A stretch of 64,000 bases of DNA. Source: Eledone cirrhosa. Its lineage: Eukaryota. A program made the position numbers and the translations under genes. The stretch is taken from the NCBI GenBank assembly GCA_964016885.1, contig OZ024741.1, forward strand, positions 181,970,001-182,034,000, read 5' to 3'. The notes under the pieces were generated by a model. It worked only from the letters and a program-made list of their open reading frames with translations, ran no database searches and had not been told where the DNA came from. Of this stretch, positions 1-60,200 are shown one piece after another (position 1 is the stretch's first letter; each line of letters starts with the position of its first letter).

Positions 1-3000
1 GAGGAGTACTAAATACCTAAATTATAGTGATTATCAAACTGTTCTTGTTTTCTTTTGTATATAATTTATATACAAAAGTCTATATGATGTATTGAGATGT
101 AAAATCTCGTATCTTTGAGTTATAACTTTCTGTTTATTGAAACAAATATTTTATACAATCTGAACTATGAAATATATGCTTATCGAAAAATCTTTGCGAA
201 TATACATGACAGGTCAAAGTAACATAATGCAGCTCTTCCGTCTAAGGAGAAACACGATCGATTCTACTGATGACACACTGACCTCATAATACTTCTCTTG
301 ACCCAGGTCAGAGACCTATAATGAAAAGTATTCCTGCAATTACTAGCCAATCTTGTTTATGCATACTTAATATATATGCATTATCACACGTGACCTTCCT
401 TTATTCAGTAGTACATAGTTATTTGTAAATTGATTTGACCTCTATTTATTACAAGTTAACAATCTCTAGAAGCTTCGAATCCCGTTTCCTAACTGTTGAT
501 AATCATTGCAACATATTTCAGTAAGAAACTTGTGAATCAATTGGACAAGTCATCGACAGAATTGTCAATTCGGATACAAAAACATTTACAGAAAACATTT
601 TAATAGAAACTGTCATGATCAAATTTTAGCTGTAGTCCAGCATGTAATAACGGAAGCTTTTACATACATATTTTGATTCTTTTTGTTTTAACTAGTCAAG
701 AAACTATCTTTAATGTGCTATATCACATTATATATATATATATATATATATATATGTGTGTGTGTGTGTGTGTGTGTGTGTGTGTGTGTGTGTGTGTGTG
801 TGTGTGTGTGTGTGTGTGTGTGTGTGTGTGTGTGTGTGTGTGTGTGTGTGTGTGTATAGTTGTTGTAGGGTTGCAGGTAAATGCGTCCGTAGGCGGTATG
901 CCGGTTGAGCACTCGATGCTCGCGCAGAGCAGAGTATACTATTATAAAGAACGACGAATCAGTAATGCATCAAACCACAATTTATTAATATATTACATAT
1001 GCTTCTCCGTCGAATAGCTCGAGGCAGGATCTGTTACAGAAGATATATCTGAAGACCCTTCGAATGCAGAGTCAGGTTCGATCTGTAACATATCTGTAAC
1101 ATATCCTGCCTCGAGCTGTTCGACGGAGAAGCATATGTAATATATTAATAAATTGTTGTTTGATGCATTACTGATTCCTCGTTCTTTATAATACATACAT
1201 ATATCTATCTATCTCTATATATATCTATCTATCTATCTATCTATCAAATACCACTTTGGAAGAAGAATCAGGATGGAGAGAGAGGTGCTGTACCCCAGCA
1301 TGTTTTATGAGAGGTGGGTGAAAGTGGCGAGAATAGCCCGAGGGAATGGGCCTTCTCTCTATATCAGCCTGTAGGTTGAGGAAAAGCAGGAGGAGAGGAA
1401 AGGAGTACAAACTCTTCGTACTCCTGGAGATGAGGGTTGCACAATTTTTCGGGGGTATTTGTTGCCCTTATGAACTGTCTCCCCTATTGGGGAAAATCGA
1501 CTAATTTTTTAAATTGGATTTGTGATAATATTTTACACGTTTTTATTGTATGTAACTTCCTCCTTTGTATTTGTCCCCTTCTTTTGTGCCCCTGTGGCTA
1601 ATAAAGAAACATATCTATATCTCTCTCTCTCTCTCTCTCTCTCTCTCTCTCTCTATATATATATATATATATATATATATATATATATATATATATATAT
1701 TTATACATATATAATAAAAAGGATGAGGTGTTAGATCTTCTTTACATTTATTGAGGTATGACGCGTGTTTCGCGATTGATCAATTCAAGGCTCGATCTGT
1801 ATCGATCTGGTCCGACTCTGGAATCAAAAGCTCGTCGGACTTCTGTTATGGTATTGACAGAATCATTCCCTTACAATTTTAAACAAGTACATATCAGTTC
1901 TCATTCATTTATTGTGGTCAATTTTACTTCATTTTAATTGGTGGTTTTGCAAGAAGAAATATTTGGGTATGTGGGATAGATATATATATATACCTATATA
2001 TATATATATATATATATATATATATATATATATATATATATATATATACCTATATGTATGTATATATATATATATATATATATACATATATGTATGTATG
2101 TATGTATGTATGTATGTATGTATGTATGTATGTATGTATGTATGTATGTATGTATGTATGTATGTATGTGTATGTGTATCGAGAGAGACATACTCACATA
2201 TGTATATCTGTAAATGTTTTCTATACATTAATACAAATCGATATTGGACTTTTCTTGTCTTAGGTGACTTATTTCCTTTGACACCTGTTAAAATTACACA
2301 AAATATGCGACACACTTTAAGTAATGAATAATGCAAAACATTTTAATTACCTAAATCGATACTCCCAAACACGTGTGCGTGGTTAAGTAACGTGGTTAAG
2401 TAACTCCGCATCTTTGTGGTCTCAGGTTCGAAGCCATATGATTGGCGAGTGTCTGTTGTTATGGATCTTCTATCTGAGTAGCAGATTATTTGCGTTCCGC
2501 CATCTAGAACCGCCAGCCTATTGTGTACATTTAACACATTCTACTGTTAGGACCATTAGAATTGAGTCCTGTGGATGAGTATAACTTCCTCCCTTCCTCC
2601 AAACAATTTGAAGGTTCTGAAAAATGGCATTGGTACTGTCCTTCCTTCTATGACTAAAACGTTAAAAGCTGGTTCAGACGTATGTTTTGAATTTAGTCAA
2701 AATAGTAAGAGTAACACCCGTCATATTTTGCGTGGCGTCTGAGGTTACTGAGTGAAATGCAGTTCTTGTTGTAGCTGAACTTGTTGTTGTAGTTGCCGTT
2801 GCTGCTGTTGAACAGCACATCATCAAACATAGTAAAACCCTATAGTCGAATTATCGACAAACCGTTCCTGATCCTGTGCCTACATTATTATTAGTATTGG
2901 CAGTATTGGTAGAGGGTCGGACGCCAGTAGTTACGTCCCTTTACGGTCTGAGTTCAAATCCCGTCAAGGTTAACTTTGCCTTTCATCCTTACGGGGGTCG

Positions 3001-57251: not shown

Positions 57252-60200
57252 ATTTAGGAACAGTTTAGGTATGATACATTTTATTACTAATTATATCTAA
57301 ATGTTTCTTCTCTCTTCATAATGTATATATTATATATATATTATATATATATATATATATTATATATATATTATATATATATATATATATATTATATATA
57401 TATATTATATATATATATATATATTATATATATATTATATATATATATATATTATATATATATTATATATATATATATATATATTATATATATATATTAT
57501 ATATATATATATTATATATATATATATTTATTATATATATATATATTATATATATATATATATATTATATATTATATATATATTATATATATAAATATAT
57601 TATATATATATATATATATATTATATATATATATTATATATTATATATATATTATATATATTATATATATATATATTATATATTATATATATATTATATA
57701 TATATATATATTATATATATATATATATATATTATATATATATATATATATATATATTATATATATATTATATATATATATATATATTATATATATATTA
57801 TATATATATATATATATATTATATATATATATTATATTTATATATATTATATATATATATATTATATATATATATTATATTTATATATATTATATATATA
57901 TATATTTATTATATATATATATATTATATATATATTATATATATATATATTTATTATATATATATATATTATATATATATATATATATTATATATTATAT
58001 ATATATTATATATATATATATATTATATATATATATATATATATAATATATATATAATATATATATATATATATATATTATATATATATTATATATATAT
58101 ATATATATATATATATATTATATATATATTATATACTTATATATATATTATATATATATATATATTATATATATATTATATATATATATATATATATATA
58201 TATATATTATATATATATATATATATATATTATATATATATTATATATATATATATATATATTATATATATATTATATATATATTATATATATATTATAT
58301 ATATATTATATATATATATATATATATTATATACTTATATATATATATTATATATATATAATATATATATTATATATTATATATATATATTATATATATA
58401 ATATATATATATATATATATATATATATATATATATATATATATATATATATATATATATTATATATATATTATATATATATTATATATATATTATATAT
58501 ATATATATATATATATTATATACTTATATATATATTATATATATATATATATATTAGATATATATATATATTATATATATATATATATATTATATATATA
58601 TATATATATATTATATATATATTATATATATATTATATATATATATTATATATATATATATATATTATATATATATATATATTATATATATATATTATAT
58701 ATATATATATATTATATATATATATTATATATATATATATATATAATATATATATATTATATATATATTATATATATATATTATATATATATTATATATA
58801 TATATTATATATATATATTATATATATATTATATATATATATATATATATTATATATATATTATATATATATTATATATATATATATATTATATTATATA
58901 TATATTATATTATATATATATATATTATATTATATATATATTATATTATATATATATATATTATATTATATATATATTATATTATATATATATATATTAT
59001 ATTATATATATATTATATATATATTATATATATATTATATATATATATATATATATTATATATATATATATATTATATATATATATTATATATATATTAT
59101 ATATATATATATATTATATTATATATATATTATATATATTATATTATATATATATATATTATATTATATATATATTATATTATATATATATATTATATTA
59201 TATATATATTATATATATATATATATATTATATATATATATACATTATATTATATATATATATATATATATATATATATATTTATATTATATATATATAT
59301 ATATATATTTATATTATATATATATATATTATATATATATATTATATATATATATATATTATATATATATTATATATATATATATATATATATATATATA
59401 TATATATATATTTATATTATATATATATATATTATATATATATATATATTATATATATATATATAATATATATTTATATTATATATATATATATAATATA
59501 TATTATATTATATATATATATATTATATATATATATTATATATATATTATATATATATATTTATATTATATATATATATATATATATATTATATATATAT
59601 ATATTATATATATATATTATATATATATTATATATATATATATATATATATATATATTATATATATATATTATATATATATTATATATATATATTATATA
59701 TATATTATATATATATATATAATATATATATATTATATATATATATATAATATATATATATATATATAAATATATATATATATATATATATATATATATA
59801 TATATATATATATATTATATATATATATTATATATAATATATATATATATTATATATAATATATATATATATTATATATAATATATATATATATTATATA
59901 TATATATATATATATATATATATATATTATATATATATATTATATATAATATATATATATATTATATATAATATATATATATATTATATATAATATATAT
60001 ATATATTATATATAATATATATATATATTATATATAATATATATATATATTATATATAATATATATATATATTATATATAATATATATATATATATATAT
60101 TATATATAATATATATATATATTATATATATATATATAATATATATATATATATATTATATATAATATATATATATATATATTATATATAATATATATAT

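Follow-up and report, generated by a model that had tools for sequence, protein, structure and literature searches.

The DNA considered here is a window of 64 kb from Eledone cirrhosa (contig OZ024741.1 of assembly GCA_964016885.1, positions 181,970,001 to 182,034,000), an AT-rich stretch of a 3.0-Gb assembly with many TA microsatellites. It carries numerous motifs with the layout of type I hammerhead ribozymes, which sit at the 3' ends of two kinds of element: protein-coding Penelope-like elements (PLEs) of the Hydra clade, and short tandem units that lack an open reading frame (ORF). A sequence-only reading of the window had listed 16 such sites and had taken them for a diverse population of sequence-unrelated, non-coding ribozyme elements of Penelope or retrozyme origin. 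A hammerhead-like layout is indeed present at all 16 coordinates, on the strand implied, and nine of them pass a strict descriptor that requires the core, a helix I of at least 4 bp, a helix II of at least 3 bp, and a helix III that is either a palindrome of at least 6 nt or a hairpin of at least 3 bp. Two sites had escaped the list, a strict one at 32694 and one with an A9G change at 22055-22117. The features are as follows.

1043-1145, plus strand: type I hammerhead layout with a long helix II and A15.1G; fails the strict test
10293-10363, plus strand: hammerhead of family B, assigned to coding Hydra-clade elements; tail fragment at about 10019-10409, one helix I mismatch
15621-15671, minus strand: hammerhead with a U4A core, family C, assigned to coding Hydra-clade elements; strict match
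16820-16876, plus strand: family D hammerhead, from an ORF-less tandem unit of 375 nt; helix I mismatch
22055-22117, minus strand: hammerhead with A9G, absent from the earlier list; related to the 50122 group
22359-22468, plus strand: hammerhead with an 83-nt helix II region; element at about 22137-22655, two relatives
23839-23881, minus strand: hammerhead of an old family, main arm; 2-bp helix III, passes a looser scan only
23985-24023, plus strand: truncated inverted arm belonging to the element at 23839; helix I without its 3' strand
30779-30860, minus strand: hammerhead with a stable 8-bp helix III, from an ORF-less unit of about 653 nt; partial tandem at 30364-31435
31937-31981 (listed as 31935), plus strand: degraded hammerhead from a family with a U4C core; changed in the core and in helix I
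32694-32760, plus strand: strict hammerhead absent from the earlier list; helix II shortened by a deletion compared with its relatives
34095-34138, minus strand: U3-A8 hammerhead with a weak helix I; fails the strict test, one relative
37419-37457, minus strand: minimal hammerhead of a 482-511-nt tandem unit; element at 37119-37651
48969-49019, plus strand: second family C hammerhead, U4A; inside a composite repeat of about 1.1 kb
49881-49946, minus strand: family K hammerhead, left arm of a back-to-back pair; strict match
50114-50179, plus strand: family K hammerhead, right arm; strict match
51700-60933, unstranded: AT-microsatellite tract, target of the F57 insertion; imperfect, 9 kb, with a 200-base assembly gap
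56149-57326, unstranded: two-armed insertion of the 591-nt ORF-less unit F57; both arms run into TA repeats
56395-56482, minus strand: U3-A8 hammerhead, F57 left arm; strict match
57164-57251, plus strand: U3-A8 hammerhead, F57 right arm, with a 10-nt palindromic helix III; strict match

Ten strict matches were found in the window, namely nine of the listed sites (15621, 22359, 30779, 37419, 48969, 49881, 50114, 56395 and 57164) and the additional one at 32694, against a mean of 0.185 and a maximum of 2 in 200 dinucleotide shuffles made in 300-nt blocks. This contrast is partly post hoc, since the U3-A8 and U4A cores joined the descriptor only after the window had been inspected. An independent test used 59 stretches of 10 kb at preset positions (589,000 bases). 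This sample gave 72 strict matches, spread over 29 of the 59 stretches, where 20 shuffles gave between 0 and 4, with a mean of 1.35. Both the excess over shuffled sequence and the diverse, genome-wide character of the population, as the sequence-only reading had it, are thus borne out.

An origin by chance in AT-rich repetitive DNA might be argued from Rfam, which reports no match in the window at its gathering score and, in the 150 listed out of 185 E-value matches, nothing from a hammerhead family. It might also be argued from the seven listed sites that fail the strict descriptor because the core is altered, helix I has a mismatch, helix III is short or the copy is truncated; for two of them, 10293 and 16820, the relatives are intact. 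The shuffles refute this explanation, whose probability is negligible. In addition, helix I exceeds the required 4 bp in 56 of the 72 sampled matches, helix III is palindromic in 43, and reversed-pattern controls gave zero.

Weighted by contig class, with unplaced contigs excluded, the sample gives an estimate of about 340,000 strict motifs genome-wide (bootstrap range 220,000-480,000), of which about 7,000 are expected by chance. For the genome this amounts to about 110 strict motifs per Mb. Support for the estimate comes from exact-pattern counts of the same size as those predicted from the sample: four sampled matches of family C predict about 20,000 copies and 18,624 were counted, while seven of family B predict about 36,000 and 21,234 were counted. 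The proximity to (TA)n noted earlier also holds: 79% of 70 sampled matches have a TA run no more than 350 nt downstream, as opposed to 34% of random places. When the 72 matches were assigned, 27 fell to short units, 13 to coding elements and one to family K, and 31 stayed unassigned.

The helices covary across copies. In 21 related hammerheads, picked by a descriptor that requires the core-adjacent pairs, 90.8% of 336 cells are paired (37-56% in slid controls), and 13 of 16 pairs show two-sided changes, a level reached in none of 500 shuffles. Two-sided changes also occur at inner helix II pairs that played no part in the selection. The description of the motifs as unrelated in sequence was overstated, because the 16 sites make up 12 families, four site pairs are copies of one another, and family 22110 is related to family 49938/50122. 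Equally, the view that the population as a whole is non-coding and moved in trans is not supported: four of the 12 families are ORF-less short units, and three are represented by the tails of coding elements.

These three families (10301, or family B; 15666/48974, or family C; and 31941) are classed by their sequence as protein-coding Hydra-clade PLEs, and their copies in the window are 5'-truncated tails, not non-coding elements. Family B, with 21,234 exact 29-mers genome-wide, has open frames of 738-808 aa between tandem copies 3.3-3.9 kb apart, the tandems spanning 3.3-4.4 kb. Upstream, family C extends into a tandem unit of 3,259 nt that contains an ORF (locus L267); its 104 scored copies are 96-100% identical, many have 713-aa open frames, and the copy at 15597-16735 in the window keeps the last 29 codons. 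Family 31941 has 734 exact copies, and in one long copy (L391) the hammerhead lies about 1.1 kb behind a Hydra-type endonuclease ORF, of which the linker and the endonuclease alone were seen.

The ORFs of the coding families carry RW[R/I], DKT and CxCx5C motifs and a C-terminal endonuclease. They agree with the definition of the Hydra clade (PMC8557442) in having a C-terminal GIY-YIG domain with CxxC and CxH in place of CCHH, and the hammerhead in the terminal repeat, the tandem or inverted copies and the (TA)n target are likewise present. A local Pfam scan returned no family for any of three Hydra ORFs; 912 relatives exist at about 40-57% identity. In the genome there are 10,596 first-look GIY-YIG candidates. 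Those examined have Neptune-like and Poseidon-like motifs (clade labels from motifs, PMC8557442) and hammerheads of their own, and none of them carries a motif of the window.

Published Hydra-clade PLEs (PMC8557442) are alike in having one ORF, about 700-800 aa long, with RWx, DKT, CxCx5C and a C-terminal endonuclease, as well as a 3' hammerhead, a (TA)n target, an inverted 5'-truncated arm and a tail at one end. One of them, Hydra-1_Obim from an octopus, is listed with a canonical-core hammerhead (PMC8557442 supplement), and the likeness to it was judged by eye on the text of that supplement. Eledone differs in having at least three families, two of them with about 20,000 motif copies, one with a U4A core and one with a U4C core. 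The second family C hammerhead of the window lies at about 48570-49750 in a composite repeat of about 1.1 kb that is common to most of the 30 best loci; this reads as a Penelope fragment amplified as a passenger of another element.

The second kind of element comprises families 56477/57169 (F57), 30853, 37453 and 16824. By their sequence, these would be non-LTR retrozymes, ORF-less tandem units of 591, about 653, 482-511 and 375 nt respectively, where the length of 375 nt comes from one tandem pair (L390). F57 forms head-to-tail arrays whose youngest copies are 99-100% identical, and 2,525 exact ends at unit position 163 run into TA. Family 37453 has arrays of up to seven units, family 30853 has 1,511 first-look candidates, and family 16824 is represented in the window by a fragment at 16737-16909. 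The unit of about 653 nt has taken up about 180 nt from a SINE-like repeat that is very common, seen in the window at 30450-30630 and 31110-31280. The sample added units of 310 and 801 nt. The window holds no copy of the 310-nt family, for which 4,054 exact hammerheads were counted; it forms back-to-back arrays that reach about 19 units (loci L375-L384, L142, L161 and L165). Families with other hammerheads (loci L145, L158, L251, L072 and L272) are 74-82% identical to the 310-nt unit over a stretch that holds both of its 3' ends, and this common stretch may possibly be a protein-recognition module.

The longest ATG frames in the short units have 47-137 aa. None of six short units holds a tRNA gene, and 10 PLE proteins gave no tblastn match to these six. 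Folded as circles, the units are predicted to be 61-68% paired; a shuffle control made for F57 alone gives z = -5.9. The 591-nt unit was found in six sequencing runs from three studies whose kind of data is unrecorded, four of the runs being in the form of contigs and one possibly the assembly's own source; no RNA run is among those listed. Both flanks of F57 are TA repeats, which would hide a target site duplication.

Animal non-LTR retrozymes are similarly built of ORF-less, GC-poor tandem units, each with one type I hammerhead and strong self-pairing, and for them Penelope helpers and target-primed copying of circles have been proposed (PMC7229834). The units in Eledone reach 590-800 nt, compared with 150-450 nt there, and have Penelope-type hammerheads with a long helix II and two-armed insertions with fixed ends. 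In number, the estimate of about 340,000, made with our own descriptor, compares with 126,247 in axolotl, about 5,000 in mussel and more than 6,000 in coral (PMC7229834). The genome would thus exceed the axolotl count about 2.7-fold at about a tenth of the genome size. The minimal hammerheads of Penelope elements (PMC4209133) share the palindromic helix III, the dimer model, the U3-A8 variant, the circle hypothesis, a great variety within one genome and opposite-strand pairs 100-700 bp apart; the counts there are 2,000-9,000 per genome, and the available text describes no U4A core. PMC6765202 reviews the known work. Both kinds of element are already published; of interest here are the scale, a strict two-end rule with common haplotypes, and variants at core position 4. 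The main text of the 2026 repeat annotation of Octopus vulgaris, as available, contains none of the words ribozyme, hammerhead and retrozyme (PMC13282606), and in the open-licence literature no paper joining "hammerhead ribozymes" with "cephalopod" was found.

U at core position 4 is kept in other families and replaced in two. Family C has A at this position in 100 of 100 copies among the matches listed of 18,624, and family 31941 has C. The same U4A change is found in a diverged relative (L140) and in an unrelated motif (L197, position 1887, minus strand) with an 8-bp helix I and a long helix III. A U4C core is known from a viroid (PMC3088659). A U4A core in an intact family of about 18,600 copies was not found in print in the open-licence literature; U4A may be described by Lunse et al. 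2017, on Penelope hammerhead variants. Natural U4A and U4C cores in successful families offer a test of how far catalysis matters for spread.

The anatomy of the insertions bears on how the short units move. F57 was followed in 107 insertions, of which 60, like that in the window, consist of two arms pointing outwards into TA repeats. In 49 of 53 complete two-armed cases, an end at unit position 163 is paired with one at 328 (most loci were picked by one end, the other being free), and the remaining four have another end. The same end occurs twice in none of the 53; seven more insertions are cut by the locus edge. In the window, the left arm ends at about position 328 and the right arm at 163. 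The 310-nt family, whose loci were chosen by their ribozyme, independently of the ends, shows the same rule in 10 of 10 two-armed insertions, with one end at about 180, the other at 204-211, and arms of up to 15 units. In each case the two 3' ends lie downstream of the cleavage site rather than on it, in AU-rich places where a few bases match the TA target, and the two arms mostly join with an overlap of 0-5 nt. Coding families show comparable paired ends. Neither a strict two-end rule nor motifs on this scale were found in print in the open-licence literature, nor was a paper that brings Penelope-like elements together with twin priming.

The units within one insertion also share a haplotype. 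They agree at 185 of 202 polymorphic sites, where permutation gives a mean of 5% and a maximum of 7%; both arms agree at 90 of 100 sites, and F57 has 45 distinct rare variants that are present in every unit of their insertion.

Two simple accounts of these insertions were rejected. If the cDNA stopped at the cleavage site, breakpoints would gather there, and 5 of 120 do so, which is about the share expected by chance; instead, arms traverse an intact cleavage site up to six times. Neither do the insertions create giant AT tracts. Over 130 flanks the median length is 45 nt and six reach 200 nt, so the 9-kb tract at the F57 insertion of the window is an outlier.

Could the arrays simply be terminal repeats of Penelope elements that were inserted once and then multiplied on the spot, as satellites, by unequal crossing-over? 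Such a scenario has been put forward for the retrozymes of vertebrates, and in Xenopus these match the terminal repeats of Penelope (bioRxiv 10.64898/2026.07.22.740005); many single copies in the Eledone genome are plain truncated tails. However, the arrays are dispersed over thousands of sites at 99-100% identity, have fixed 3' ends, ragged 5' ends and inverted arms with a common haplotype, and the short units have no match to the eight coding elements compared. Local multiplication is therefore an improbable explanation.

It is even slightly less probable that another reverse transcriptase (RT) moves the short units, such as that of the presumed R4/Dong-like or RTE-like LINEs of the window. 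LINE remnants do lie at 18061-21754 and 43802-45966, and LINEs have been named as possible helpers (PMC7229834). On the other hand, the short unit has no poly(A) or simple-repeat tail of its own, and it is inserted in the same arrangement and at the same TA target as the coding Penelope families of this genome. Movement by Penelope enzymes is very likely, while the identity of the elements themselves, taken separately, is close to certain; their Penelope or retrozyme origin, proposed earlier, agrees with the Hydra-type ORFs, the short tandem units and the TA targets. Hydra is the first candidate for the helper clade, favoured by its TA targeting and its abundance, and Neptune-like elements are also present. 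Li, Clavereau and Pollet 2026 (bioRxiv 10.64898/2026.07.22.740005) likewise treat retrozymes as non-autonomous Penelope derivatives, with unit lengths of 51-972 bp that cover those found here. They argue from co-occurrence and sequence similarity in 35 genomes, mostly of vertebrates and none of a mollusc, and the available text holds no analysis of insertion ends; in Eledone the link is the insertion anatomy, with no sequence likeness found to the eight coding elements compared.

The explanation that we favour, with a probability of about 0.68 for the whole, is that the short units are copied by Penelope RT from self-cleaved, circularised RNA that is primed at two fixed sites. Read-through transcripts of arrays would be cut at the hammerheads, mostly as dimers formed via the palindromic helix III; a natural F57 dimer is predicted to fold unaided into the double-hammerhead form. 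The unit-length RNA would then be closed into a circle, and the Penelope GIY-YIG endonuclease would nick both strands of (TA)n. The two DNA ends thus released may anneal to the two AU-rich sites downstream of the ribozyme, each of which is present once per circle, so that the two arms must end at different sites. Extension of both ends would follow the circle past the re-ligated cleavage site and give arms of up to 15 units, and the two cDNA ends would finally be joined by short microhomology. The circular template, considered as a separate step, is somewhat favoured.

Several observations weigh against this explanation. The 17 of 202 sites that disagree within an insertion, three of them in insertion L233, and the mixture of three family variants in L233, imply that a multimer or several templates served in at least some insertions, and homogeneous arrays would also be expected from multimer transcripts of homogeneous parents. 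RNA, circle and cleavage are inferred here from elements known as DNA, whereas RNA circles have been shown in the animal retrozymes of PMC7229834. In predicted folds, monomers take the ribozyme shape only in part. Cleavage by the U4A and U4C cores may be slow or lost, low activity of such motifs even as dimers has been reported (PMC4209133), and cleavage was seen in one of nine dimers (bioRxiv 10.64898/2026.07.22.740005). The covariation count leans towards structure, given that the selection required core-adjacent pairs. Finally, there is no clear shared 3' sequence between the short units and eight coding elements: 14 elements from the window and the sample, compared with stretches of these eight, gave microsatellite or nested-insert matches only, most coding families of the genome lying outside the comparison. 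For this reason the helper is assigned by insertion pattern alone.

Some of these points would suit the same elements and the same Penelope enzymes acting on a linear multimer that was transcribed from an array in the genome and left uncut. In that case the ribozymes would be weak, or marks for protein binding, and the geometry with which the protein sits on the RNA would fix the ends. Arms that cross intact cleavage sites, mixed haplotypes in a minority of insertions, the low reported activity of Penelope hammerheads, the U4A core in a very successful intact family, and a two-end pattern that coding elements show too are all in line with such a template. Yet a linear multimer offers each priming site many times, and an end is repeated in none of the 53 complete F57 insertions and none of the 10 of the 310-nt family. 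Rare variants that run through all units still need a single-unit bottleneck somewhere, the helices are kept by compensatory change, and circles have been shown for mussel, coral and axolotl retrozymes (PMC7229834). A linear template is therefore a less likely possibility, to be taken more seriously than either satellites or LINEs, and the copying of a self-cleaved circle is preferred.

In the literature, the integration of Penelope elements and retrozymes and the role of the ribozyme are stated as open questions (PMC8557442, PMC7229834, bioRxiv 10.64898/2026.07.22.740005), and Penelope insertions are known to carry a 30-40-bp tail at one end (PMC8557442). It is tempting to speculate that Penelope-type insertion in general is twin-primed rolling-circle reverse transcription of a single ribozyme-made circle, that the population described here is the largest of hammerheads yet counted, and that it includes a working U4A core; this wider proposal is tentative. 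If true, such twin-primed copying explains the one-sided tail, the inverted arm and the tandem units together. The genome would be an unusually good place to study how Penelope elements insert: in the young 591- and 310-nt families the reaction has left its record in the ends and variants of thousands of nearly identical insertions, and the RNA substrates are defined exactly, the 310-nt unit being the cleanest.

The rare variants of F57 gave one further lead. Read on the RNA strand, insertion-wide variants comprise 12 A>G and 6 T>C, while those of single units comprise 7 and 20 (p = 0.013), as A-to-I editing of progeny might produce. This was not replicated in eight other families (13 and 15 against 29 and 30; p = 0.82) and is a lead only. 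Over all families, 15 of 24 insertion-wide A>G sites follow T and one follows G.

The remaining features of the window touch the argument less closely. Family K (49938/50122) has 12,520 exact copies with a tandem spacing of 3.4-4.0 kb, and in the one 3.8-kb unit read (L389) no PLE ORF was detected. Site 1043 lies in an inverted repeat at about 930-1185 and has three clear relatives in two loci, two of them with a U4C core; the old family at 23839 is 65-81% identical to 25 relatives. The broken non-LTR retrotransposon at 18061-21754 (plus strand) has an RT matching Pfam RVT_1 and an end of the restriction-like endonuclease type, and we take it to be R4/Dong-like by its motifs. Other LINE fragments are presumably L1-Tx1-like (24733-28038, plus strand) and RTE-like with C-terminal zinc fingers (43802-45966, plus strand). 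A short inverted repeat at 29945-30078, with arms pointing inwards, surrounds a TA run.

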